Below, one piece after another: positions 11,272-24,085 of a stretch of 64,000 nt of DNA. The translations under genes and the position numbers were made by a program. The notes under the pieces were generated by a model. That model worked only from the letters and a program-made list of their open reading frames with translations, searched no databases and was not told the origin of the DNA. How positions within the stretch are numbered: position 1 is the first letter of the stretch; every line of letters begins with the position of its first letter. Source of the DNA: Bacteroidaceae bacterium (lineage in GTDB: Bacteria > Bacteroidota > Bacteroidia > Bacteroidales > Bacteroidaceae); NCBI GenBank assembly GCA_024398785.1, contig JAKSIO010000004.1:8331-72330 (forward strand), given 5' to 3'.

Positions 11272-13020
11272 ATGGCAGTAAGGCAGTTCCAGATTTTATT
11301 GATTTCAGGATTATTCTCAGTTTCAATAACCTATGCGGCACAGAAAATAAGTTTTTCAATGCCGCACGGGTTGTACTCAGACCCCGTTGAAGTCAGCCTT
11401 TCTGCTGACAACCCGGTTGGTACTTCAATACATTACACAACTGACGGACGTGTTCCATGTCCGTCAGATTCTGTATATAACGGACCTGTTACAATCAATG
11501 AAACAACCATACTGAGGGCTGCAATATATGCGGATGGTATATCGGACGGCAATAATGCTGCGCCGGTATCTGATGTCGCTACAGCGTCTTACCTGTTTGT
11601 TTCAAGTATCCTTTCGCAATCTGAACACCCCCAAGGATATCCTTCCGTATGGGGACCGTTCATTTGTATTCCCGGAAACGCACCTGCCGATTACGGAATG
11701 GATCAGGAACTTCTGTCTGACAGTACTTTTTGTCTGCGTGCAAGCCAAGGGCTTTATCAGTTGCCCATTGTCTCTGTTGTGACGGATCCCGACTGTCTGT
11801 TCAGTCATGATATGGATGAGCAGAAGGGCGGAATATACATATACACCGGGTCTGAAAAGAGTGATGGTTACGGACGCGGATGGGAGAGACCCGCTTCAAT
11901 TGAAATTTTTGGCACCTTGTCGGACTCTGATGTTCAGGCCGATTGCGGAATCAGAATTCATGGCGGATGCAGCCGGGTTCCGGAAAAGAATCCAAAACAT
12001 AGTTTCAGAATTGTTTTCCGCAGTGAATACGGACCGGGTAAAGTGCAGATGCAATTGTTTGGCAATGAAACCATGCAACCGTACAACAGTCTTGTTCTGC
12101 GCACATTTTCAAACAATTCATGGCAGCATTTCAAACCAAATCGCGGGAAAGCACAGTATATGCGTGAAATGTGGGCGCGTGAAACCCAACGGCAAATGGG
12201 ACACGGATATATCCGGGCACAGTATGTCCATCTGTTTCTTAACGGTATGTACTGGGGAATGTATCTCCTTTCTGAAAGACCGGATGACAAGTGGTGCAGC
12301 AGTGTTTTTGGAGGTAAATCCCAAGATTACGACATATATAAGGACGGTATACTTTTCAAAGGATCTGACGACCGTTGGAATACTATGGTGGCAACCGTTG
12401 ACAGTATAAGGCGGTATTCACTGTTGGGACTCCGAAAAAAATCTGACAGGATTCTGGACAGGCTGGAACTGTTGTTGGATGTAGACAGTTTCATAGACTA
12501 CATGCTATTGAACTTTTATGCCGGAAATACTGATTGGGACACTAATTGGGCCGCTTATGCCAACCGCAAGGAAAAATCAGGCTTCAGGTTTCTCTGTTGG
12601 GATTCGGAATTGGTTTTCGGATCTATGGGAACTGTCAGTATATTGTCAAGAGGCGGTGTCCATAGACAGATATTCCACAAACTGATGTATAATCGGACTT
12701 TCCGTAAACGCTTCAAGGAACGGGTATACCTGAATTGTTACAACAACGGACCTCTTACTCCGGAAAGTGTAATGCGTACTTGGAATGAGCTTTACAGCAG
12801 AATTAACCTTGCATTGTACACAGAATCAGCCCGTTGGGGCGACTACCGCCGTGACGTCCATCCGTATGTGGAAAATACGGACCAGTTGTACACTCCAGAC
12901 AATCAGTTCGCAGCTGAATATTCCAGGCTTATGGATGAATATTTCCCGCATCGTACTGAAAAATTGATAAAACAGTTACGTCTGTTGGGCATTTTCTGTA
13001 AACGCAGTTATTCTAAATAA
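11272..13020 (+). CDS. secreted CotH kinase-family protein with an N-terminal chitobiase/hexosaminidase-C-like domain
   Basis: Signal peptide present. IHYTTDGRVP....YNGPVTINETTILRAAIY matches the CHB_HEX_C-like domain. HGGCSRVPEKNPKHSFRIVFR....YVHLFLNGMYWGMYLLSERPDDKW matches the CotH core. Confidence 0.7.
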   Translation: MAVRQFQILLISGLFSVSITYAAQKISFSMPHGLYSDPVEVSLSADNPVGTSIHYTTDGRVPCPSDSVYNGPVTINETTILRAAIYADGISDGNNAAPVSDVATASYLFVSSILSQSEHPQGYPSVWGPFICIPGNAPADYGMDQELLSDSTFCLRASQGLYQLPIVSVVTDPDCLFSHDMDEQKGGIYIYTGSEKSDGYGRGWERPASIEIFGTLSDSDVQADCGIRIHGGCSRVPEKNPKHSFRIVFRSEYGPGKVQMQLFGNETMQPYNSLVLRTFSNNSWQHFKPNRGKAQYMREMWARETQRQMGHGYIRAQYVHLFLNGMYWGMYLLSERPDDKWCSSVFGGKSQDYDIYKDGILFKGSDDRWNTMVATVDSIRRYSLLGLRKKSDRILDRLELLLDVDSFIDYMLLNFYAGNTDWDTNWAAYANRKEKSGFRFLCWDSELVFGSMGTVSILSRGGVHRQIFHKLMYNRTFRKRFKERVYLNCYNNGPLTPESVMRTWNELYSRINLALYTESARWGDYRRDVHPYVENTDQLYTPDNQFAAEYSRLMDEYFPHRTEKLIKQLRLLGIFCKRSYSK

Positions 13021-13050: not shown

Positions 13051-14343
13051 ATGGATTTGAAAGGTATTTTAGGTTTTGACTCTGCTACCATGAACCTTAA
13101 AAAAGAGGTTGTAGGCGGTGTTACCACATTCCTTACAATGGCGTATATTCTGGCCGTCAATCCGTTGATTCTGGCCGATGCCGGCATGGATCAGGGTGCG
13201 GTTTTTACCGCAACGGCGCTGGCATCGATTATTGCCACGCTGTTGATGGCCTTTCTTGCAAAACTGCCGTTTGCTCTTGCTCCAGCAATGGGACTTAACG
13301 CCTTTTTTGCATATACGGTTGTAATTGGTATGGGACAGACATGGCAGTTTGCGCTGACTGCTGTCCTCATAGAAGGTCTTCTCTTTATACTGCTTACACT
13401 TACCGGACTCAGAAATCTGATTGTGATGTCCATACCGCTTGAGATGCGGCGGGCCATTTCTGCCGGAATAGGACTGTTCATTGCTTATATAGGTCTCAGT
13501 AATGCAAATATCATAACATCGGGTAACGGAACGTTGCTTGCGCTGGGCAATTTTACCAGTCCGTCCGTTCTGCTGTCTCTTGCAGGAATTGTTCTGTGTG
13601 CCGTTCTTCTGGTACGCAAGGTTACAGGTGCGCTTATGATAGGAATTATGGTAATCTCTCTTGCAGGGATTCCGCTTGGCGTTACCCATTTGAACGGTAT
13701 AGTAAACACTCCTCCCAGTCTTGCACCCACGTTCTGTAAGTTCGAATGGTCAAGCATTCTGTCCGGCAATATGTTCATCAGTGTGTTTACACTGTTGTTC
13801 TTTGATATGTTTGATACTATAGGAACGCTGATAGGTGTGAGCAGTCAGGCTGGTATGTTGGATAAAGACGGCAATGTGCCGCGCATGAAGCAGGCTTTTC
13901 TTGCCGATGCCGTAGGTACAACTGTAGGAGCGGTTCTGGGCACTTCTACAGTGAGTTCCTTTGTTGAAAGCGCATCGGGAGTGAATGCCGGTGGGAAGAG
14001 CGGTTTGACATCGGTTTTTACAGCATTGTGTTTTCTGCTGGCCATGTTTTTCGCTCCGCTTTTCCTTGCCATTCCGTCAGAGGCTACTGCTCCGGTACTG
14101 GTTATTGTGGGTGTTATGATGATGGCCGAGGCCGGAAAAATTGACTATGGTCATTATCTTACGTCTATTCCGGCATTTGTATGTATGGTTATGATGCCTT
14201 TGTCAGGCAGCATATCGGACGGCCTGATGATGGGCGTTATAGCCTATGTGCTTATTCACATTTTCTCCGGCAACTGGCGCAATGTGAACATTGGTGCATA
14301 CGTTCTTGCCGCTCTTTTCATCCTTAAATACGCATTCCTGTAA
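13051..14343 (+). CDS. NCS2/AzgA-family purine (adenine/guanine/hypoxanthine) permease
   Basis: 430 aa polytopic protein. EVVGGVTTFLTMAYILAVNP and the later FVESASGV.AGG blocks are typical of AzgA-type permeases. Confidence 0.85.
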   Translation: MDLKGILGFDSATMNLKKEVVGGVTTFLTMAYILAVNPLILADAGMDQGAVFTATALASIIATLLMAFLAKLPFALAPAMGLNAFFAYTVVIGMGQTWQFALTAVLIEGLLFILLTLTGLRNLIVMSIPLEMRRAISAGIGLFIAYIGLSNANIITSGNGTLLALGNFTSPSVLLSLAGIVLCAVLLVRKVTGALMIGIMVISLAGIPLGVTHLNGIVNTPPSLAPTFCKFEWSSILSGNMFISVFTLLFFDMFDTIGTLIGVSSQAGMLDKDGNVPRMKQAFLADAVGTTVGAVLGTSTVSSFVESASGVNAGGKSGLTSVFTALCFLLAMFFAPLFLAIPSEATAPVLVIVGVMMMAEAGKIDYGHYLTSIPAFVCMVMMPLSGSISDGLMMGVIAYVLIHIFSGNWRNVNIGAYVLAALFILKYAFL

Positions 14344-14383
14344 TTTTTCAGATGCCCAATGACATAAGTCACGTGTGTATTTC

Positions 14384-14461
14384 GATATATGCATATCGGG
14401 CGCTTGCTTCGCCTCCCGTTCACCTCAGAACGGGTACTGATGGCCCTCTATCGCATATATC
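14384..14461. repeat. nested inverted-repeat element (possible structured RNA/terminator)
   Basis: Outer arms gatatatgc (14384-14392) / gcatatatc (14453-14461). Inner hairpin cccgttc (14415-14421) / gaacggg (14428-14434). An additional gggc/gccc pairing lies between them. Confidence 0.4.
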
Positions 14462-14705
14462 CAAATACAAATACAGCCTGCAATAAAGCTGATTGAGAAT
14501 GTTCTTTATACATATATAGAGAATAGTGTGCAAAAAACTCAAGAGTTTTGTACTATAAAAAGTACTGTTTTCAATGAATTATTGATGACTATTTCAAAAT
14601 TCTATATGCAAATAAAAATAGTAAAATTTGTATAATTTTTTGATCTATTGAAAATAATTATTTATTATTGTAAAAAAATCATGTTGTAGATTATATTGAT
14701 GAAAG

Positions 14706-15269
14706 GTGAAAACTATTTATCTTCAATTATTTCTCTTTGTATTATTTTGTAGTTTGTTGTCCTCTTGTATAAGTAATAAAAAGAGGATTGTATCAGAGAT
14801 TACAAGTCTTTATGGCAGAACGATAGATTTTCCTGCAATTTTGGATTGTGTTACGCAGGATTCCGTTATTTATTGTGCTCAAATTGATAGTTTGGTTGAT
14901 TTTTCAAGAACAACTATAGTGACATATCTTGACAGTTCCAATTGTAAAAAGTGTGCTTTGACAATATTGGAATACTGGCATAACGTTTTGCTTAACAATG
15001 ATATTTTTGATAAAACAAATTTTATTGTAGTGGTTCATTCAACAAATCCGAATATTTTACGAACAATTTATAAAGAGTTAGATCTTCCTTATAAACTATT
15101 TGTAGATCAGTTGGATACATTTATGTTAATAAATGAAATTAGCGATTGTCTTGAGCAAAACAGAACCTTTTTGATTGATGCGGAACGTAAAGTGCATCTT
15201 GTTGGCACTCCATTAAGAAACAAATCTCTAATTGAATTGTATAAAAAAGAAATTGAGGCCTCAATGTAA
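14706..15269 (+). CDS. thioredoxin-fold (TlpA-like) lipoprotein with a CKKC redox motif
   Basis: GTG start immediately after an in-frame TGA. Lipobox LLSS-C. IVTYLDSSNCKKCALTILEYW is a CxxC motif in the position seen in Bacteroidales thioredoxin-like lipoproteins. Low-GC gene. Confidence 0.55.
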   Translation: MKTIYLQLFLFVLFCSLLSSCISNKKRIVSEITSLYGRTIDFPAILDCVTQDSVIYCAQIDSLVDFSRTTIVTYLDSSNCKKCALTILEYWHNVLLNNDIFDKTNFIVVVHSTNPNILRTIYKELDLPYKLFVDQLDTFMLINEISDCLEQNRTFLIDAERKVHLVGTPLRNKSLIELYKKEIEASM

Positions 15270-15300
15270 ATATTTTATTGTTAACTAAAAATGATGATTT

Positions 15301-15768
15301 ATGAGCAAAAAAATTTTATCAAAACAAAAACTATTATTGATTGCAATAATTGCAATTGTTGCGAGTGTAGGTTTAGGTGTTAAGTCTTATTGTTTTACTA
15401 ATAAATTAATGGTTTGTGGACTTTTGGAAGCAAATATAAAAGCTGCTACTGAAGACGTTGATACGTGGACGCCAATTCGTTTTCATGACAATAATACTAG
15501 TTGGCCTGTTTATCCTAATACAAAACCTAAGTTTAAAACCAAAAGAAGTATTGAAATCTCAGGTGAGTGGTCTGCTGCTTCAAATATTGCAAATGGCACT
15601 ATAAAGTTTTGTCCTGTTGCAACTTTTTGTTATTGTAAACATAATAGAAGAAGTTATGAATGTGATACCTATTACAATGGGTGGTATGATCACAAGGCGT
15701 CCAGTTCTGATCTTGGCAATCAGTCAGGCTTAGAAGAAGGTGATGAAAATGAAAGTGTTAATGATTGA
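15301..15768 (+). CDS. small membrane-anchored/secreted Cys-rich protein with a degenerate NVEALA-like motif
   Basis: Basic N-terminus plus a hydrophobic helix (LLLIAIIAIVASVGLGV). GLLEANIKAATED resembles the L-x-L-x-NVEALA-x-x-E motif of the NVEALA family. The C-terminal part has 4 Cys (KFCPVATFCYCKHNRRSYEC) and an acidic tail. Confidence 0.45.
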   Translation: MSKKILSKQKLLLIAIIAIVASVGLGVKSYCFTNKLMVCGLLEANIKAATEDVDTWTPIRFHDNNTSWPVYPNTKPKFKTKRSIEISGEWSAASNIANGTIKFCPVATFCYCKHNRRSYECDTYYNGWYDHKASSSDLGNQSGLEEGDENESVND

Positions 15769-16967
15769 TTTTGATTTGTATGACTAAATTTCAGTGTGTG
15801 TTTGTTGTTCTGGTGTTGTTGTACTCATGCAGGCAGAGTGTTATTGTGGACAATAATGCTATTACAATGATAAATACAGAAATTGAGCCGGATGACAGTA
15901 CATTCATTAATAATATTGAGTCTATCTCAGTTCTCCCATTGGAGAGAACTGAGAATAGTACTCGTCTGATTTGCCCTTTGTTTCTGAAAATGGGCAGAAA
16001 TTTCGCCTTGTTTGATCTGGAGGAGTGTTATTTGCAGACAAATTTTGAAGATTGCAGTTTGGCATCGTCACGTGTTCTAAAGGGAAGAGGGCATGGAGAG
16101 TTTTTGTATCCCGGTTCCGCTTATACAATGGGTGACAGTCTGATATATATTTATGATAGTTCGTCAAAAGGCTATGTCTATAATCTCTATGGTGAATTAA
16201 AGGAATCTTTTGACTGGTATGACGGCAATGAAGATTTTGATGAACTTTATAAGCAGGGGGATTATTTAATTGCCATTTCTTTGAACGGTGATTATTCTGA
16301 GCATCCAAAGAATCATTTTCACTCATACAATTTATTGGACAGCAAGCATGGCAGTGCGTATCATATTTCCAATTTATCGCCTTGGCATGCTTCCAAGGAG
16401 CAAGGTTCATATAATTATATGTTTGGAGATTCGTTGAGAATTATTATGCCGTATGACTTTTCAATTTATGCATTTGATAACGGTTCCTTTGTAAAAAGAT
16501 TCTCAATGGTTAATTCAAATCAGATTCCGCCCAAGTATTTCAAGAATATTAAAGGTTCGGCATATGATATTTATGTATGTGGTTTGGATGGCAGATTTTA
16601 TGAGGGCTTGGGTGAAGTGGCTGAAACGCAACGTTACTTGTTTTTCAATTATTCCTATACTACTGATTTTACCGGTTTCTATCTGTATGACAAGATAAAC
16701 AATACCTTGACGGAATTGTCAAGAAACAGTGACCCCAAAAAGAACCTTGCTGAAAGTATTCTGTTTTACTTTTCATATTTCTGTTCTGCTGACAGCAATA
16801 GCATATATGGCTATTTGCGCAGTAGGTTTGTTGATGAAATGGAAAAAGGAAAGAATGCGGACAGTAAGCATATCCGCCAGTTTATAAAAGATGCGAAAGA
16901 ATATATTGGCAAATATCGTCTTGATGAAACCGATCTGGTGTTTTATAAGATTCAATTAAAGGATTAA
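15765..16967 (+). CDS. 6-bladed beta-propeller lipoprotein (BF3164-like family)
   Basis: ATGA overlap with the previous gene. Lipobox LLYS-C. The KGRGHGEF motif, the repeated Y/F-rich blades and the ~400 aa size match the Bacteroidales propeller lipoprotein family that co-occurs with NVEALA genes. Confidence 0.55.
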   Translation: MILICMTKFQCVFVVLVLLYSCRQSVIVDNNAITMINTEIEPDDSTFINNIESISVLPLERTENSTRLICPLFLKMGRNFALFDLEECYLQTNFEDCSLASSRVLKGRGHGEFLYPGSAYTMGDSLIYIYDSSSKGYVYNLYGELKESFDWYDGNEDFDELYKQGDYLIAISLNGDYSEHPKNHFHSYNLLDSKHGSAYHISNLSPWHASKEQGSYNYMFGDSLRIIMPYDFSIYAFDNGSFVKRFSMVNSNQIPPKYFKNIKGSAYDIYVCGLDGRFYEGLGEVAETQRYLFFNYSYTTDFTGFYLYDKINNTLTELSRNSDPKKNLAESILFYFSYFCSADSNSIYGYLRSRFVDEMEKGKNADSKHIRQFIKDAKEYIGKYRLDETDLVFYKIQLKD

Positions 16968-16970
16968 GTT

Positions 16971-18245
16971 ATGGTAGAGACCATGAAAAAATGGTGTTGT
17001 CTGGCTGTAATGCTGCCGGTTATTGCAGGAAACTCTTTGGCATCAGGAAAACGTGTGCAACGGGATTCTGTCATCATGGAGTCTGTTGTTTTGGAACAGA
17101 TAGACATTTGTGATTTTTCGCTTGCAACTCTAATAAGGCGCACAATGTCCAATTTACCGCAAAAACATTATGATTTGCCGTCTTTCCTATATGGGAATGG
17201 ACAACTGACTCAGATAGTCAGGCGTAATGGCATCCCAATACAATTGAGCCGTCAATACGGATGGTATGTGACACCTGATTGTGCATTCAGATCAAAGGAA
17301 CTGAATGCTATGCTGACCATGGGTATTGAGTTTTTCCCGGTCTATAACGCCCGCAGTTTGGCGTATGAGAAACCGGGTGTGCTGTTAAGTGATTTTTCAA
17401 CTGCACATAATTATACATTCCAGTACTTGTATCTGCTAACCCATTATATGCCGTTGTTCTGTCCAAGCAAAGATTATGAATACCATATATTGGATCAGAA
17501 CGGTTATTTATACACAATATCTTTTGTTTCATCAAAGCGTTATCCCAAGAAAAATCCTTTGTATGCAACAGGCACAATGGTAATTGATGCTGAAAGTATG
17601 CGATTGGTGTCAATGACAATAGATAGGATGGAGTGTGTTTTAGCGTGGGATTGGGAAAGTTCCAGGTTGGTAAAGCAATCTGCAGAATTGCAAAGGTATA
17701 TTGACAAAGTCCAGCATACAAAAGAATCTGCATATCTGCATTTTGCAGATAACGGTCAGGTTGATGAGTGTATGCTTGATATCGAGTGGGATAATAAAAA
17801 ACGTTATGCTGACCATCCGTTATTGATCCGTCCTTTTGAAAAGGATTCTATTTTGTCTGTAACGGAATTCTGGAAGGCAGAGAGCTGCTCTATGATGAAA
17901 TTTAAAGATTATTATTCTATAATCGGGTTTGAATTTGATCCGTTCAGTCCGCATGCAGGGTATCAGAATTTTGTTGCTGCATGGTACGCTCCGTTGAAAA
18001 GCGTGTATGATAAAGAAAAGATTGATAATGTTGATTGGTATGGTGATTATTCCGTTGTTGAAAAGGAAATCAGCAATTACCGTCCTATAGAAGAACAATA
18101 TGAGTTGATGAGTGATTATGACTGTAAAAGGCAACAGGAACGTGATTCAATGCTTGAAAACAGTCTAAATTTCAAATATGTTCCCATTGCTATGTCAGAA
18201 GAAATGTATTCCAATATCAGGCAGTCAATGTTCGTGGAACCGTAG
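16971..18245 (+). CDS. secreted protein of unknown function
   Basis: Starts 3 nt after the previous stop. Signal peptide MKKWCCLAVMLPVIAGNSLA-SG; the start could be 16971 or 16983. No motif recognised. Confidence 0.5.
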   Translation: MVETMKKWCCLAVMLPVIAGNSLASGKRVQRDSVIMESVVLEQIDICDFSLATLIRRTMSNLPQKHYDLPSFLYGNGQLTQIVRRNGIPIQLSRQYGWYVTPDCAFRSKELNAMLTMGIEFFPVYNARSLAYEKPGVLLSDFSTAHNYTFQYLYLLTHYMPLFCPSKDYEYHILDQNGYLYTISFVSSKRYPKKNPLYATGTMVIDAESMRLVSMTIDRMECVLAWDWESSRLVKQSAELQRYIDKVQHTKESAYLHFADNGQVDECMLDIEWDNKKRYADHPLLIRPFEKDSILSVTEFWKAESCSMMKFKDYYSIIGFEFDPFSPHAGYQNFVAAWYAPLKSVYDKEKIDNVDWYGDYSVVEKEISNYRPIEEQYELMSDYDCKRQQERDSMLENSLNFKYVPIAMSEEMYSNIRQSMFVEP

Positions 18246-18253
18246 CGGCGGCA

Positions 18254-20569
18254 TCAGGCAAGGGCGTGAACTGCGGCCAATGCGTCTTTGGCGTAATATG
18301 TGGCTCCTATGTTCAAAGCAATTTCTTCTGTAAGGACGGCACCACCTGCAATAATTGGGCATGTTATGCCGTTACTGCGAAGGAATGCTATTGTCTCTTT
18401 CATTGAATCTACGGTAGTGGTCATAAGTGCGCTCAGTCCTACAGCGTAGGGCTTTGATTCAAGACAACATTTCAGAATTTCTTCTTTTGAAATATCTTTG
18501 CCAAGGTCAGTAACGGCAAAGCCATGGCTCTGTAGAACCACTTTGACAATGTTCTTGCCAATATCGTGGACATCACCCTTTACTGTAGCCAATACTACGT
18601 TTCTTATGTTTTGCGCTGTTTGTGCGGTATTGTCCGCAGCGAACTTTTCTGAAAGAATTCCAAATGCGGTCTTTGCTGCTTGAGCCGAGCGGATTAGCTG
18701 CGGCAGGAACATTTTTCCTTTTTCAAACTGCTCTCCGACCATAGTAAGTGCAGGTATCAGAATGTTATTGATAATCTGCATGCGGTCTTTGCTCTCAAGT
18801 TCGGTCTCTATATATGAACTTATGCCATCCTGCAGTCCGTGAATTATGGCGTATGTAAGGTCATGTACCTGGGTGTCTTCCTCCTGATCTCCGTTGAATG
18901 CAATGTATTCCGTGCAGTCTTTGTCAAGACCGGCTAAAGCCATGTAAGCTTTTGCAGTGGCCATTGTTTCTTTATCCAGAGGATTCATGATTGGCATATC
19001 AAGACCTGCCTGAAAGGCAAGAGCAAGGAATGTGCGGTTCAGGATTGGGCGCTGGGGCAGACCAAAGGATACGTTTGAAAGTCCTATCGTTGTAAGAACT
19101 CCTTTCTTTTTGAGTCCTGCAAGGGTTTCAAGTGTAATTACGCCATGACTGGTGTCTGATGATATGGTCATGACCAGGGCATCGCATACAAGTTGTGACG
19201 GTGCAATGTCAAATCTGGCGGCACGTTCTATTATGTGATCCGCAATTTCCAAACGTCCCTGGCTGGTCTCCGGTACACCTTGGTCGTTCAGCGTGAGCGT
19301 TACTGCAGGAGTTCCGAATTTCTGCATTACCGGCAACAGTCTGTCAAGTACGGCATCGGCTCCGTTTATGGAGTTTATCATTGGAACGCCGTTGTAAACG
19401 CGTATTCCTTTTTCAAGTGCGTCTGCGTTTGAACTGTCAAGCTGCAGTGGCAACTGGCATACTTTCTGAACCTCTTTAACCGCACTGCAAAGCAATTCGG
19501 ATTCGTTGCAATCAGGAATACCTACGTTCAAATCAAGGTAATCCGCTCCGGCTTCGGTTTGAGACAGGGCTTCAGACTGCAGATATGACCAGTCCTGTGA
19601 CTGCAGTGCAGCGCGCAGTTTCTTTTTACCTGTAGGGTTTAGACGTTCTCCACAAACTATACCTTTGCCTAATTTTACCAGTTTGGTGGACGAACATATA
19701 TATGTGCCGTTTATCGGCTCGGGATCTGCGGCATTATACTGTTTGAGATTCTGCATGGCCGCAATTGTGGATGGAGTTGTACCGCAGCAGCCACCAATTA
19801 TTGATGCCCCTGCCTGAACAAGTTTTTCTGCATTTTCCGCAAACAACAGGTCAGAATAGGGGTATTCCACCTTTCCGTTTTTCATTACCGGCAGACCCTT
19901 GTTGGGCTGCACCAGAACGGGAACCTTTGCAAAGGGACGCATGCGGCGGATTATGTTCTCAAAGTTCTCAGGACCGCTTGAGCAGTTGGCTCCAAGTGCG
20001 TCAACTCCTAAAGAAGAGAGTGTGACCGCTACAATTTCGGGACTTGAGCCGGTCAGTGTAAGATGGTCCGCATTGAATGTCATTGTGGCGAACACAGTCT
20101 TTGAACAGTGTTCTTTTGCAGCAAGCACTGCTGCCTTTATTTCATATAGGTCAGAGAATGTTTCAAGAATATAACCGTCAACTTTGTCTGCCGTATAGTC
20201 AACCAGTTCCGAATAATTGGCGTAGGCCTGCTCAAACGTATATTGTCCTATAGGTTCCATGAGCTTGCCGGTAGAGGTTATGTCAAACATAACTTTTACC
20301 GATGTCCCCTGTACTGCGCAGCGGGCATTGCTTATGGCGGCATCGGCTGCCTGCTGCCAGGTAACCTGCTGATTGTCCCACTTTGCCGGGTTTATACTGA
20401 AACTGTTTACGGTGATGTACTGCGCACCGGCTTGAACGTATGCCTTGTGCAGGTCAATAACGGCTTGCGGATTGCTGATATTAAGATCTTCAACCAAACC
20501 TGCATTGCTCAGCAGCGGAGTAAGGTTTGTTCCTATTGCTCCGTCAAATAGTTGTATTTTTTTACTCAT
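18254..20569 (-). CDS. metH: cobalamin-dependent methionine synthase, short form (Hcy-MT + pterin-binding + B12-binding domains, no reactivation domain)
   Basis: Zn ligands GANCSSGP and GGCCGTTP mark the homocysteine S-methyltransferase domain, followed by a pterin-binding barrel. GDVHDIGKNIV (DxHxxG), SALMTTT and GGA are B12-binding motifs. The ORF ends right after the B12 domain at 771 aa. Confidence 0.85.
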   Translation of the reverse strand: MSKKIQLFDGAIGTNLTPLLSNAGLVEDLNISNPQAVIDLHKAYVQAGAQYITVNSFSINPAKWDNQQVTWQQAADAAISNARCAVQGTSVKVMFDITSTGKLMEPIGQYTFEQAYANYSELVDYTADKVDGYILETFSDLYEIKAAVLAAKEHCSKTVFATMTFNADHLTLTGSSPEIVAVTLSSLGVDALGANCSSGPENFENIIRRMRPFAKVPVLVQPNKGLPVMKNGKVEYPYSDLLFAENAEKLVQAGASIIGGCCGTTPSTIAAMQNLKQYNAADPEPINGTYICSSTKLVKLGKGIVCGERLNPTGKKKLRAALQSQDWSYLQSEALSQTEAGADYLDLNVGIPDCNESELLCSAVKEVQKVCQLPLQLDSSNADALEKGIRVYNGVPMINSINGADAVLDRLLPVMQKFGTPAVTLTLNDQGVPETSQGRLEIADHIIERAARFDIAPSQLVCDALVMTISSDTSHGVITLETLAGLKKKGVLTTIGLSNVSFGLPQRPILNRTFLALAFQAGLDMPIMNPLDKETMATAKAYMALAGLDKDCTEYIAFNGDQEEDTQVHDLTYAIIHGLQDGISSYIETELESKDRMQIINNILIPALTMVGEQFEKGKMFLPQLIRSAQAAKTAFGILSEKFAADNTAQTAQNIRNVVLATVKGDVHDIGKNIVKVVLQSHGFAVTDLGKDISKEEILKCCLESKPYAVGLSALMTTTVDSMKETIAFLRSNGITCPIIAGGAVLTEEIALNIGATYYAKDALAAVHALA

Positions 20570-20572
20570 TGC

Positions 20573-21469
20573 TTATTTCTGTACTGGTGCAAAGAAACGT
20601 GATGCCACGTAACCGATATTCTGCATAAGCTGTGTAATGAACGTACTTTTGTTCATGGAATACAAGTGAATGCCGTCAACATCGTGGGCCATCAGGTCAA
20701 GAATCTGATAGCTTGTAAAAATGATACCTATTTCCTGCAGTGCGGCTTTGTCGTTTTTGTACAGGTCAAAATAGTTGCGCAGTTGCAGTGGAACAGCGCA
20801 GTGAGTAACCTGAATCATGCGGTCAAGCTGATTGTAGTTGGTTACAGGCATTATTCCAGGTATGATAGGTATTGTAATTCCGGCCTTGCGTGCGGCAAGA
20901 AGGAACTGGTAGAAAACCTGATTGTCAAAAAACAGCTGGGTAGTGAAGAACTCCATTCCTGCATCCTGTTTTTTCTTCAGGTTTTCAATATCCTGACGCA
21001 TTGATTCGGCTTGTGGGTGCATTTCAGGGTAGCAGGCACCGGCTGTCATAAAACAACCCGGCCTGGATGTGTGTATATATTGCGACAGATCTGACGCATG
21101 CGTGAAATCCGAGAAGAGCGGAGTAGTGATATTCTGCGGAATGTCACCGCGTAAGGTCAGTATGTTCTCAATCCCGTTTTGCTGCAGGTTGTCAAGAACC
21201 ATGTCAATATCATGCTTTGTAGAAGATACGCATGTCAGGTGAGCCAACGGCTGCGCCTTGGTGTTATCTTTTATATGCTTTGCAATACCTACAGTATTGC
21301 TTAACGTATTGCCCAAAGCACCATATGTGACACTGATAAAGTCCGGAGACAAGGCATCCATTTTTGATATGGTGTCAGTAACCAGAGCTAATGTCTCATC
21401 TTCTCTTTTTGGCGGAAATATCTCAAAAGAAAGTGTCTTTTTTGTCTTGAACAGTTCCGAAATTTTCAT
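20573..21469 (-). CDS. metF: methylenetetrahydrofolate reductase
   Basis: LSFEIFPPK.., ISVTYGA.G, LAHLTC and the ~298 aa length fit. The start is set at ATG 21467-21469, because the longer ORF-track start (21613) lies upstream of the mapped promoter. Confidence 0.85.
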   Translation of the reverse strand: MKISELFKTKKTLSFEIFPPKREDETLALVTDTISKMDALSPDFISVTYGALGNTLSNTVGIAKHIKDNTKAQPLAHLTCVSSTKHDIDMVLDNLQQNGIENILTLRGDIPQNITTPLFSDFTHASDLSQYIHTSRPGCFMTAGACYPEMHPQAESMRQDIENLKKKQDAGMEFFTTQLFFDNQVFYQFLLAARKAGITIPIIPGIMPVTNYNQLDRMIQVTHCAVPLQLRNYFDLYKNDKAALQEIGIIFTSYQILDLMAHDVDGIHLYSMNKSTFITQLMQNIGYVASRFFAPVQK

Positions 21470-21501
21470 ACAATATATGCTCGTCTTAATATATAATGTG
21501 G

Positions 21502-21533
21502 CAAAGTTACTTATTATTCTTCTTATTGGCAAA
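21502..21533 (-). promoter_or_regulatory. metF-metH promoter (-33 TTTG / -7 TAACTTTG)
   Basis: On the minus strand: TTTG (21530-21533), 20-nt spacer, TAACTTTG (21502-21509). It lies about 33 nt upstream of the metF ATG. Confidence 0.6.
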
Positions 21534-22015
21534 AATGGTATGTGTTTGTAATGTTTGCCATTTGTTAAAAAACAGTAATTGTATTTGTTAACGATATTGT
21601 TGTATTTAACCAAAATACCGGAAAAACTGACCTTGCAATATGCTGGAAGTGATATTGCTGCCGATAGGCCTCAAATGTACCAAATAATGTTTTTTTGAAT
21701 AAAAGTGAAAAAAATGTTCGTAAAAATAAAAATTGTAACATAAAAAGTGTTATCTTAACATCTTGAAAGTTTGAGTTCAAGTGGAAAAGTGTTGATTTTG
21801 ACAGGATTTGTTTTGTAAACGTCTTGTTATCAGTATTTTGCGCTTGGGATTGAGGCAGTTTGTTTCTGCAGTTGGCATTTCCCCCGCTATTATGGAATGC
21901 AGCTATGCAGGACAGCCACTCCAAACGAAAGACGTTTTTATCCTTTGGGGATAATTGTGTCTGGTGTGTTTTGCTCATACTTGTTGTTTTGATAATATTA
22001 AAATACTAAAATTAT

Positions 22016-24085
22016 ATGAATGTTAACAAGAAAAATCAGAAAGGACTGAAAGGTATTCTCAGTGCCGCTGTGATTTGCGGTGCACTTTCTCTGTTTCAGG
22101 TAAGTTGTCTCAGTGAGTATGCTCCGGGACAGTACTACACTTTTTCCGGTGAAACAGTTGCCACTTTCCTAGAGAACAACTCAGAGGATTTCAGTAACTT
22201 TATTTATGTGCTTAAGAATGCTGAACATCCGTTGTGGGGTGAAATGCAGACCTATGGTACTTACACATGTTTTGCTCCGGTCAACTCAGGTTGGGACAGT
22301 ATTTTCAAACAGTATAAGGTATCAAGCGTAGATCAGCTTACTCCAATACAGTGTGACTCAATAGCAATGACACACATTGTTGACAAGTTGTGCTACACAT
22401 CGGAACTTAATTCAGGTGATGCATTGCCTTACAGCAACAAGTTGGATCAGTCTCTGCTCTATTCATGTGTTATGGATACACTTTATCCAGGTACAGATTC
22501 TGCACGTGTAAAGCCTTTCTACCAGATTAATAACATGTCCGGTCTGATTGCTCTTGATGATACTGTTCAGAATGGTGTTGTTCATGTTGTAAACAAGGTA
22601 ATTCTCCCAAGTAACGAGTTCCTTCCGATTGCAATGAAGAGCGATTCCACCATCAGAATCTTCCTTAGTGCTCTTGAAATGACAAAGTTGAATCAGGATC
22701 TGCTTAAGTTCCAGGATGACTCTTACCAGTGGACTGCTTCTGCAAGATTGGATTCTTGTATAAAGGGTGTCACTTACTCAACCGGTTCAGAGACGGAAAC
22801 AGCTTACTGGCCTGAGAAACGTTTGTTCAAGTTTACTGTTTTCGCAGAAAAAGACGCAGTCTTCCAGAAGAATAATATCAACAGTGTTGAAGACCTGATT
22901 GAGTATGCCAAGGGTGTATACGGAAGCGGTGAAGGTGTGGCAGATGATGACTATTCAAATCCTCAGCATCCTCTTTATAAGTTTGTTGCATACCATATTC
23001 TTCCTGAGCAAATGGCTTACAATGAATTTAATGTTTCACAGGAGGATATTGTGGCCAACTTTGTTGCAAGAGATTATCTTGACATTGAAGATTTCTTTGA
23101 GACATTGTTGCCTCACTCAATTCTCCGCATCAGCTCTCCTAAAGATCCTGATGCCGATTCAACAATGGGCGTGTTTATCAACCGTAAGGGTGTTCTTCCT
23201 AACCTTGAGTTCAGGGGCATAGAAATAGAACGCGGAACAGCTCATACTTCAAAGAACGGTATCTACCATTACATTGATGATATTCTAAAATATGATGATG
23301 AGACGCGCAATGAGGTTCTTAATTGCCGTATCAGAATTGATGCTATGACTTTGTCTCCTGATTTTATTAATTGCAAGAATGCTAACGGAGGTCGTGGAGT
23401 ATTGCATCAGGATGGTACAAGAACTTCAATGGGTATGCGCAGGGGCTATATTACAAACTTTGTTACCGGTCAGAGTACGGCCGTATATGTGCGCAAGAGA
23501 GATAAATATTTCTCTAGTTATCAAGGTGATGACCTTTCAATGAAGGGAATTTATGATCTTACATTCAAACTGCCACCTGTACCAAAGAGTGGTACTTATG
23601 AGGTTCGTTTGGGTTTCTTTGCAATGAAATCACGTGGTGTTATCCAGTTGTTCTTTGGTGAAGCAGTTCCTGGTCAGGAAATTGATCCGAACGATCTTAA
23701 TCCTGTAGGTATTCCTCTTGATATGAGAATTATTCCTACAGATCCTAAGATTGGCCATATAAAAGATAGCGAATTGAACGATGATCCTGAGCAGATCAGT
23801 GCTTATGACAAGGCTATGCGTAGTCGTGGATATATGAAAGGTATTGCTTGCTATGCCAGCAGTGGTACTACATTGCGTGACCAGAATGAGGTTCAGCAGG
23901 GGGACGGTTCATTAAGTGGTGAGATTCGTCGTATTCTTGTTACCCAGTATTTGAACTGCAACCAGGACTATTATATCCGTGCACGTCAGATTCTTGATAA
24001 TCCGAATGCTGAGTTCCAGTTTGACTATATGGAACTTGTTCCTAAGAATATTTATGCAGGCGCAATTCCTGAGGATATTTATTAA
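22016..24085 (+). CDS. fasciclin (FAS1) domain-containing lipoprotein
   Basis: Lipobox (FQVS-C). YTCFAPVNSGW..., ...MTHIV... and VQNGVVHVVNKVILP are FAS1 H1/H2-like boxes, followed by a long C-terminal beta-rich region. Confidence 0.6.
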   Translation: MNVNKKNQKGLKGILSAAVICGALSLFQVSCLSEYAPGQYYTFSGETVATFLENNSEDFSNFIYVLKNAEHPLWGEMQTYGTYTCFAPVNSGWDSIFKQYKVSSVDQLTPIQCDSIAMTHIVDKLCYTSELNSGDALPYSNKLDQSLLYSCVMDTLYPGTDSARVKPFYQINNMSGLIALDDTVQNGVVHVVNKVILPSNEFLPIAMKSDSTIRIFLSALEMTKLNQDLLKFQDDSYQWTASARLDSCIKGVTYSTGSETETAYWPEKRLFKFTVFAEKDAVFQKNNINSVEDLIEYAKGVYGSGEGVADDDYSNPQHPLYKFVAYHILPEQMAYNEFNVSQEDIVANFVARDYLDIEDFFETLLPHSILRISSPKDPDADSTMGVFINRKGVLPNLEFRGIEIERGTAHTSKNGIYHYIDDILKYDDETRNEVLNCRIRIDAMTLSPDFINCKNANGGRGVLHQDGTRTSMGMRRGYITNFVTGQSTAVYVRKRDKYFSSYQGDDLSMKGIYDLTFKLPPVPKSGTYEVRLGFFAMKSRGVIQLFFGEAVPGQEIDPNDLNPVGIPLDMRIIPTDPKIGHIKDSELNDDPEQISAYDKAMRSRGYMKGIACYASSGTTLRDQNEVQQGDGSLSGEIRRILVTQYLNCNQDYYIRARQILDNPNAEFQFDYMELVPKNIYAGAIPEDIY

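Follow-up and report, generated by a model that had tools for sequence, protein, structure and literature searches.

A recently exchanged low-GC block in horse-gut Bacteroidaceae and its apparent kinship with a recurring Bacteroidales gene trio

Four genes of low guanine-plus-cytosine (GC) content, here called the cassette, lie between a permease gene of the xanthine/uracil family and metH, the gene of the cobalamin-dependent methionine synthase, in the genome of a horse-gut Bacteroidaceae bacterium (assembly GCA_024398785.1, contig JAKSIO010000004.1). How did these genes come to this site, and do they belong together? An earlier note, made from the letters of the 64-kb stretch analysed here (the window), had taken them for a self-contained accessory module of exported proteins. 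Comparison with related genomes and with distant homologues gives a divided answer. To judge from the alignments, the block that contains the cassette is low-GC accessory DNA that entered or swept several lineages long after their divergence, at one chromosomal site. Three of its genes (O1, O2 and O3) appear to be a copy, much diverged, of a trio found repeatedly in Bacteroidales, and the fourth (O4) looks like a rare orphan added to that trio, the four together forming no conserved unit. The evolutionary and compositional parts of this answer, taken jointly, are in our opinion very probably right. The features on which the argument relies are the following (L093 and L001 are comparison contigs described below):

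14303-18262, no strand: exchanged block, near-identical between diverged genomes, delimited by mismatch mapping against L093 and L001
14370-15362, no strand: presence/absence segment of 993 bp, comprising most of the leader, O1 and the first 20 codons of O2
13051-14343, plus strand: permease of the xanthine/uracil family, left flank (Pfam PF00860, E = 5e-42)
14344-14705, plus strand: leader, the 362-bp intergenic region between the permease gene and O1
14706-15269, plus strand: O1, putative CxxC lipoprotein of 187 amino acids, with a GTG start
15301-15768, plus strand: O2, putative anchored Cys-rich small protein of 155 amino acids
15780-16967, plus strand: O3, putative propeller lipoprotein of 395 amino acids; the listed open reading frame begins at TTG 15765
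16971-18245, plus strand: O4, putative secreted orphan protein of 424 amino acids
18254-20569, minus strand: metH, cobalamin-dependent methionine synthase of 771 amino acids, right flank, convergent with O4

The history of the block was studied with three comparison contigs: L001 (Logan, run SRR29445147), L093 (ENA assembly ERZ27247118) and L002 (the GTDB representative "Bacteroidaceae bacterium Horse_feces24"), the last two being 98-99% identical to each other. The SSF and permease genes of the window are respectively 93.8% and 92.1% identical to those of L093, with 0.27-0.33 synonymous substitutions per synonymous site (dS) and a ratio of nonsynonymous to synonymous rates (dN/dS) of 0.03-0.05. 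Mismatches with this contig are dense up to position 14302, and a single one (16386) is then found through 16840, where the contig ends. These 2538 bp comprise the full leader, 100% identical in both, O1, O2 and 89% of O3 (353 codons), with the frames intact. In the comparison with L001, the SSF (95.5%), CotH (97.4%), permease (98.8%) and metH (97.9%) genes surround a stretch, 15363-18262, in which only three mismatches occur (16386, 17596 and 18170), and differences become dense again from 18263. At the divergence of the flanks, about 180 differences would be expected against L093 and about 60 against L001. The switches in identity lie no more than about 40 bp from the permease stop and about 10 bp from the metH stop. 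Since the block holds one to three mismatches while its flanks are 92-99% identical, a recent horizontal spread is indicated, and purifying selection cannot explain this identity because non-coding and synonymous sites are identical too. The edges, near 14303 and 18262, fit the earlier suggestion of an accessory block placed exactly between permease and metH. The search for the cassette in related genomes, which had been proposed as a check, agrees with this: the three related contigs that continue beyond the permease all have the block at this site, and the more distant relatives of the permease have neither the cassette nor the permease-metH synteny.

The block exists in two forms. L001 lacks the 993 bp of 14370-15362, which are present in L093, and shows a clean junction with 3-4 bp of microhomology. 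The deletion takes out most of the leader, the whole of O1 and, from O2, the 20 initial codons and with them the membrane anchor. The resulting O2 remnants of 139 amino acids are found as five distinct variants on five contigs, all with the same junction and with the start MPND[MI]SVGLG (MPNDMSVGLG in L001). The intact O2 of 155 amino acids, which L093 encodes as well, is recorded on two contigs (the longest of 101.5 kb, from an NCBI source). Because the five variants have one junction, they go back to a single real deletion event, now widespread. The short form is derived and disabled, since all the relatives of O2 carry the anchor. O3 and O4 are intact in the contigs with the deletion allele, with at most two amino-acid changes. 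O1 and the anchor of O2 are thus dispensable, and a common allele keeps O3 and O4.

A second presence/absence polymorphism adjoins the cassette. In the window and in L001, a CotH-kinase-like gene (11272-13020; 582 amino acids, with Chitobiase C-terminal and Fn3-associated domains) lies between the SSF and permease genes. In L093 (1988-2374) and L002 (9562-9845) its place is taken by a short repeat array with units of about 70 bp (…CAACCTTCGCAAAAA…GCGAAGG…), and only the last 39 or so codons of the gene are left. The L002 contig ends 194 bp past the permease in an inverted copy of this repeat (11295-11488), which may be an assembly break.

The cassette also stands out by its composition. It is the longest low-GC run of the 64 kb and, in the sliding-window GC and k-mer analyses that had been recommended, the strongest tetranucleotide outlier of the window (distance of 0.33 against a median of 0.16). 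Sliding windows of 300 nt have 23-31% GC over 14400-15449 and 32-43%, mostly 35-40%, over 15300-18299, against 43-50% in the permease and metH. The drop relative to the flanks that had been estimated from hand counts is therefore real, and it is deeper than those counts suggested. Gene by gene, the GC contents of O1, O2, O3 and O4 are 29.6, 33.1, 36.1 and 39.2%, against 44.5±1.8% for the 36 other genes of the window (z = -8.5 to -3.0). GC at third codon positions (GC3) is strongly deviant only in O1 (24%, z about -5) and O2 (20%, z about -6); that of O3 and O4 is 38-39% (z = -1.7 and -1.3). The synonymous-codon likelihood is not extreme. Universal presence combined with native codon usage, by which the earlier note proposed to recognise resident genes, is accordingly found in part only: the cassette is not universal, and its GC3 is foreign for O1 and O2 and near-native for O3 and O4. 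Elsewhere in the window, a second short low-GC stretch (21200-22100; minimum of 31% per 500 nt and 28% per 300 nt) spans the start of metF and the intergenic region before a gene for 689 amino acids at 22016. This is probably merely a divergent promoter region.

How the block moves may be judged from what surrounds it. No open reading frame for an integrase or transposase was found at the cassette and no direct repeats flank it, in keeping with what had been read from the sequence at first sight; there is no tRNA near it either, the closest lying 34 kb off. Thus, the marks of a classical genomic island or mobile element (integrase, direct repeats, tRNA target) are missing. Plasmid and phage collections contain no DNA resembling the cassette, viral contigs no relatives of its proteins, and the defence (PADLOC) and phage (PHROG) family libraries gave no meaningful match for O1-O4. 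Because there are no mobility genes in the block, recombination of transferred chromosomal DNA seems the most likely way in which it moved. The leader has near-normal GC in its first 130 bp or so and is extremely AT-rich in the remainder (23-29% GC). A 17-nt inverted repeat (14376-14392 and 14453-14469, 94% complementary, 60 nt apart) sits just 3' of the permease stop, in the part with near-normal GC and within the near-identical block, and a hairpin at 14474-14491 has a terminator-like score on the minus strand only. Scans for sigma-70-type promoters and terminators gave nothing above shuffled expectation, the leader contains no exact or canonical Bacteroides -7 motif (TAnnTTTG), and no Rfam family was found within 13500-19000.

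The list of open reading frames confirms that the four genes between permease and metH are co-directional and tightly packed. The distances of 31 bp between O1 and O2 and of 3 bp between O3 and O4 are as previously given. The overlap of 4 bp reported between O2 and O3 hangs on a TTG start at 15765, and the distance becomes +11 bp with the ATG at 15780. The latter is more likely, because this ATG is the start used in independent gene calls of public assemblies, in which O3 is a product of 395 amino acids, and because it yields a normal lipoprotein signal. Only 8 bp separate the end of O4 from the metH stop, and a scan of this junction found no terminator-like site, so that both the coordinates and the scan agree with the abrupt end that had been described. 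All four products also carry the export signals attributed to them, when their translations are read by eye: lipoboxes in O1 and O3, an anchor in O2 and a signal peptide in O4. The metH product contains the S-methyl_trans, Pterin_bind and B12-binding domains of Pfam, and the C-terminal reactivation domain (PF02965) is absent; in L079, one of the contigs carrying distant homologues of the cassette genes, Met_synt_B12 is encoded by a separate gene of 227 amino acids.

Among the cassette proteins, O3 is the one whose relatives are the most informative. By itself, it matches neither PF17170 nor any other Pfam or NCBIfam model even at E <= 0.1, it has no match in the PDB by phmmer, and a word-indexed search of 5.8 billion proteins returned only its own identical copy. 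Scans of metagenomes and viruses with a sub-alignment of O3 likewise gave nothing. A full HMMER search, run over 1.84 billion cluster representatives, did yield 21 relatives (E = 6e-17 to 4e-4; 22-35% identical), nearly all of about 400 amino acids and aligned end to end. PF17170 (DUF5128) is matched by 16 of the 19 relatives that were scanned (best E = 5e-37). Against a profile of its relatives from which it had been left out, O3 scores 211 bits with all 396 positions aligned, and the family profile reaches PDB 4RAA (2e-21) and the NHL-repeat propellers of eukaryotes (1e-8). The lipobox of O3 is LYSC, and its Cys is invariant in 20 relatives. On these grounds, O3 is predicted to be a very divergent DUF5128 or NHL-like six-bladed beta-propeller lipoprotein. 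The initial description as a propeller lipoprotein is thereby borne out, though only by transitive homology, through relatives that match PF17170 and a profile that reaches 4RAA. Position 16386, the sole mismatch with L093 in 2.5 kb and one that also differs from L001, gives a His in the O3 of the window (LSPWHASK) and a Tyr in allele P0036.

O2 starts with a hydrophobic anchor at residues 11-27, followed by the NVEALA-like juxtamembrane motif LLEANIKAATED, with the core ANIKAAT at residues 44-50, and, towards the C-terminus, by a part that contains four Cys (FCPVATFCYCKHNRRSYEC). It is without a Pfam or NCBIfam match at E <= 0.1. Its gene lies directly 5' of a DUF5128-type gene, as do small genes in L079, L080, L082 and L088. 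The small proteins encoded upstream of the relatives of O3 have 121-166 amino acids, an anchor and the motifs SNLEALT, SNVEALS, SNIEAIT or NNIEALT. Those of L079 and L080 match Pfam NVEALA below its threshold (E = 0.003-0.005; 17-18 bits against a gathering score of 27). Past the motif, the relatives of O2 are Cys-rich and highly variable. A relaxed form of the motif, set after seeing the data, is found once in the 67,333 amino acids of the six-frame open reading frames of the window, in O2. NVEALA proteins have about 62-83 amino acids according to the Pfam description, and O2, with 155, falls outside this small size. O2 thus resembles NVEALA proteins only weakly, by position, architecture and a degenerate motif and not by statistics. 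Its earlier characterization as NVEALA-like is backed by synteny and by the degenerate motif, and by no Pfam match.

O1 has the lipobox LSSC (by inspection) and a CxxC motif, C80-K-K-C83 (CKKC). It has no Pfam or NCBIfam match at E <= 0.1 and no phmmer match in the PDB, and a word-indexed search with O1 and O2 as a concatenated query, a concatenation that may have lowered sensitivity, found nothing. By BLASTP, O1 matches genes located 3' of the DUF5128 genes in L079, L080 and L088 (E = 2e-12, 9e-11 and 4e-5). These CxxC relatives are lipoproteins of 180-224 amino acids with the motif IVxWxDSxxCxxC, encoded immediately 3' of the relatives of O3, and no Pfam or NCBIfam model matches the members of the family. 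A family profile built without O1 has O1 as its sole match among the 730 six-frame open reading frames of the window (E = 4e-14). Searched against the PDB, the family profile finds 2M72 (E = 0.006), YkuV (0.03) and ResA (0.1), with the CxxC in register and most of the domain aligned. Proteins of the TlpA/ResA/YkuV type make up all ten matches listed in one profile search and the top nine of 15 in another. Neither Cys of the motif varies in the family alignments, and the two fall opposite the CxxC of 2M72, YkuV and ResA. A thioredoxin-like fold therefore seems likely for the O1 family; classical TlpA membership is not established. The proposal of a CxxC lipoprotein with a thioredoxin fold is upheld as far as the CxxC and the lipobox are concerned, and the fold itself marginally, through the family profile. 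More generally, the profile searches suggested for the families in question produced no direct match for any of O1-O4: they identify O3 through its relatives, O1 marginally and O2 weakly.

In gut and oral Bacteroidales, a genome often contains numerous paralogues of genes of the DUF5128 and NVEALA types. In four independent neighbourhoods of O3 relatives (L079; L080; L082-84; L088-90), the order is NVEALA-like, DUF5128 and CxxC lipoprotein, often with 4-bp overlaps between the genes, which substantiates the earlier remark that the three families co-occur. In L078, the start of the lipoprotein gene overlaps the end of its DUF5128 gene, and in L085/86 and L087 the partner genes are absent within the short DNA covered. 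In the window, the three genes are adjacent and co-directional in the order CxxC, NVEALA-like and DUF5128. On the strength of these homologies, we take O1, O2 and O3 together to be a highly diverged copy of the recurring trio. In the tandem array of L088, a DUF5128 gene is directly preceded by what is left of a CxxC gene. Because of this array, the order seen in the window is what would be expected from a piece cut across two adjacent trios. A mosaic origin is likewise compatible with the jump in GC3 from O2 to O3. In L080 (3630-6222), the trio is followed by genes for a Wzy_C/TPR (O-antigen-ligase-like) membrane protein and then for an S26 signal-peptidase-like protein. In an expression table of PMC10434189, BT0662 of Bacteroides thetaiotaomicron (O-antigen-ligase family) is two genes from BT0664 (six-bladed beta-propeller). 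Since both cases pair a propeller with a gene of the O-antigen-ligase type, there may be a larger conserved cluster around the trio, which the cassette of the window would lack. The literature searches turned up nothing on NVEALA or DUF5128, and the mentions of "6-bladed beta-propeller" that they returned were entries of expression tables that give no function, which accords with the earlier statement that the combination has no assigned function.

O4 does not share this background. Its signal peptide ends SLA|SG (by inspection) and it has no match in Pfam, NCBIfam, PADLOC or PHROG. Its family profile found nothing in the PDB and no profile-profile link was found, so that its description as a protein without a recognisable domain survives every search made. 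It has five distant relatives, 27-31% identical. Three of them (L076, L091 and L092) are encoded between a gene for a DUF805 membrane protein and genes for an esterase or a type IX secretion system (T9SS) plug, by proS. The other two (L075, 181-5192; L077, 290-3311) have 517-520 amino acids and lie directly 5' of a gene for a BlaI-like repressor, which is accompanied by a gene for a BlaR1-like M56 peptidase of 974 amino acids. None of the five adjoins DUF5128, NVEALA-like or CxxC genes. O4 would thus represent a rare orphan family, an add-on to the trio rather than part of a conserved four-gene unit, and because of the 3-bp gap it is probably co-transcribed with O3. Two candidate relationships were rejected: O4 is not a second propeller (hhalign probability of 1% against the propeller family), and the protein encoded 5' of the O4 relative in L076 is not a relative of O3, as it contains a DUF805 domain. 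The idea of one self-contained four-gene module has to be abandoned, since the relatives of O4 occur in unrelated neighbourhoods and both O1 and the O2 anchor are missing from a common allele.

What the encoded proteins would do together can be sketched from their domains. All four products are predicted to leave the cytoplasm, from signal sequences recognised by eye. In Bacteroidota lipoproteins, acidic residues just after the lipidated Cys direct surface exposure. No acidic residues follow this Cys in O1 (CISNKKR) or O3 (CRQSVIV), and since this surface-export signal is missing, both lipoproteins probably face the periplasm. There, O1 would form or reshuffle disulfide bonds of the anchored O2, in its C-terminal domain with the Cys residues, and O2 would dock on the O3 propeller or be presented by it, with O3 acting as a binding partner or scaffold. 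This redox and docking model for O1, O2 and O3 is tentative, and it may well prove wrong. The explanation as a whole, which joins the recent exchange of a block composed of a trio and O4 with a periplasmic module, mixes the very probable with the tentative, and we would give it about an even chance.

Several observations weigh against this explanation. The GC3 step between O1/O2 and O3/O4 means that the block may itself be a mosaic, in which case the grouping of O1, O2 and O3 could be secondary. The switches in identity hug the edges of the block, which is unusual for plain homologous recombination, and they were mapped with only two comparison genomes. In the window, the profile of the small relatives has O2 as its best match, but the E-value is 0.08. 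The thioredoxin fold of the O1 family is assigned at marginal E-values (0.006-0.1), and the cis-Pro loop before beta-strand 3 is not conserved in this family: the position, a Pro in 2M72 and ResA, is R, H or K-N (NRTFLI, MHSFLL, FHAFLL). The single-sequence AlphaFold2 model of O3 (predicted local distance difference test, pLDDT, of 38) and the prediction for O4 from four sequences (pLDDT of 35) are unusable, so that the fold claims for the cassette proteins are indirect. The redox and docking steps are drawn purely from domain content, since the literature assigns no function to these families. Lastly, the deletion allele is commoner than the intact one (five variants against two recorded contigs), and this speaks against a need for O1 and O2 in this host.

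Other scenarios may explain the same block. Variation between strains and recent horizontal spread, both seen in the block, are typical of competition loci; it could then be an antagonism module, along the lines of the earlier note, in which O2 is a secreted, disulfide-bonded effector or a bacteriocin-like peptide with an NVEALA-like leader or anchor, O1 its dedicated oxidoreductase, and O3, O4 or both are devoted to processing, export or immunity. The Cys-rich and highly variable region past the motif of the O2 relatives would suit such an effector, and the S26 signal-peptidase-like and Wzy_C/TPR genes of L080 could process or modify it. By analogy, the sublancin locus of Bacillus subtilis SPbeta, in which sunA is accompanied by the dedicated thiol-disulfide oxidoreductases bdbA/bdbB, offers a precedent for such oxidoreductases in a bacteriocin locus. 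Nevertheless, the cassette contains no transporter, peptidase or toxin domain of Pfam or NCBIfam, the defence and phage libraries gave no matches, and O2 has no cleavage site of the Gly-Gly type (by inspection). Moreover, the commoner allele destroys the presumed effector and oxidoreductase and keeps O3 and O4, which fits an immunity-only "orphan" retention or decay equally well. Antagonism is thus decidedly unlikely in our estimation. Decay would mean that the block is passenger DNA, brought in by chance recombination, functionless in its host and eroding, perhaps as two or more unrelated fragments together. Under this scenario, the occurrence of the 993-bp deletion allele in five sequence variants against two contigs with the intact allele and the several amino-acid variants among the 139-residue O2 remnants would be signs of erosion. 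The abrupt GC3 change between O2 and O3, the unrelatedness of O4 to the trio and the lack of a canonical Bacteroides -7 promoter motif 5' of O1 would be expected as well. Yet all four frames are intact in the window, as are O1, O2 and 353 codons of O3 in L093, and O3 and O4 have changed by no more than two amino acids in the contigs with the deletion allele. A near-identical block across flanks that have diverged by 2-8% suggests a selective advantage rather than neutrality, and decay seems rather unlikely.

The remaining alternatives deny that there was an exchange. If the genes were ancient and native, their low GC resulting from amino-acid composition or expression, the block would not be accessory at all. 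Its identical position in the three related contigs that go beyond the permease would then be trivial, and the GC3 of O3 and O4, within about 1.5 standard deviations of the host genes, and the unexceptional synonymous-codon likelihood would be natural. A resident, however, would have diverged with its flanks, and yet the 362-bp leader is 100% identical where the flanks are 92-94% identical; the GC3 of O1 and O2 is 5-6 standard deviations below that of the host, and the distant relatives have neither the cassette nor the permease-metH synteny. A native origin is thus extremely improbable. A chimeric assembly is very unlikely, as independent assemblies from different samples agree. The recent exchange of a block composed of a diverged trio and an orphan gene is therefore the reading that we retain, its periplasmic part being held far more loosely.

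If that reading is correct, the block, 99.9-100% identical between genomes whose surrounding DNA differs by 2-8%, sharply delimited and devoid of mobility genes, is informative about the way in which accessory genes sweep across populations of gut Bacteroidaceae. The comparison adds the CxxC lipoproteins as a third partner family, for which there is no model, as well as an NVEALA-like partner in a long, Cys-rich form, and what was a loose co-occurrence would thereby become a three-component module open to test. Natural alleles can be compared: the intact one, the one lacking O1 and the O2 anchor, and those in lineages with diverged flanks. A bolder conjecture, and to our minds a long shot, is that the trio is a widespread and unrecognised Bacteroidales system that makes, displays or releases hypervariable disulfide-bonded envelope proteins, and that the cassette is sweeping a gut population by recombination alone because of a strain-level advantage. 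In that case, the advantage could be, for example, antagonism, the masking of phage receptors or an interaction with the host, obtained without the machinery of a mobile element. If the function turned out to be mundane or absent, the locus would only be a well-documented small island of hypothetical genes.

It remains to compare the cassette with the systems that it recalls. With the sublancin locus, likened here from its genes and as a functional analogy, it would share a Cys-containing exported product encoded beside a thioredoxin-like oxidoreductase on horizontally acquired DNA. The two are unrelated in sequence, and the cassette belongs to a Gram-negative envelope and has no transporter or glycosyltransferase. 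O1 resembles the TlpA/ResA/YkuV oxidoreductases by a CxxC that likewise follows the first beta-strand (start of helix 1), by a similar domain length and by being a putative extracytoplasmic lipoprotein. Unlike them, its family has no Trp before the first Cys, its CxxC dipeptide varies, its cis-Pro is not conserved and O1 is matched by no thioredoxin model of Pfam or NCBIfam. With NVEALA (PF14055), O2 appears to have in common an anchor followed by N-[IV]-[EK]-A-x-[TS] and then by acidic residues, as well as a gene located directly 5' of a DUF5128 gene. It departs from that family by its degenerate motif (ANIKAAT), which reaches no Pfam match, and by a Cys-containing C-terminal extension of about 100 amino acids that makes it about twice the size of an NVEALA protein. 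The likeness is closest for O3, whose homology to DUF5128 (PF17170) and PDB 4RAA ("putative exported protein") runs over the full length of about 400 amino acids, with an invariant lipoprotein Cys and the shared motifs IESIxxxPLE, GRGxGE and ETxRYL, although O3 itself reaches no model and shares no more than about 30% identity with its best relative. Families for the propeller and for NVEALA were already catalogued in Pfam, and what the horse-gut locus contributes is a re-ordered, extended and divergent variant of their cluster, together with its exchange at the level of populations.

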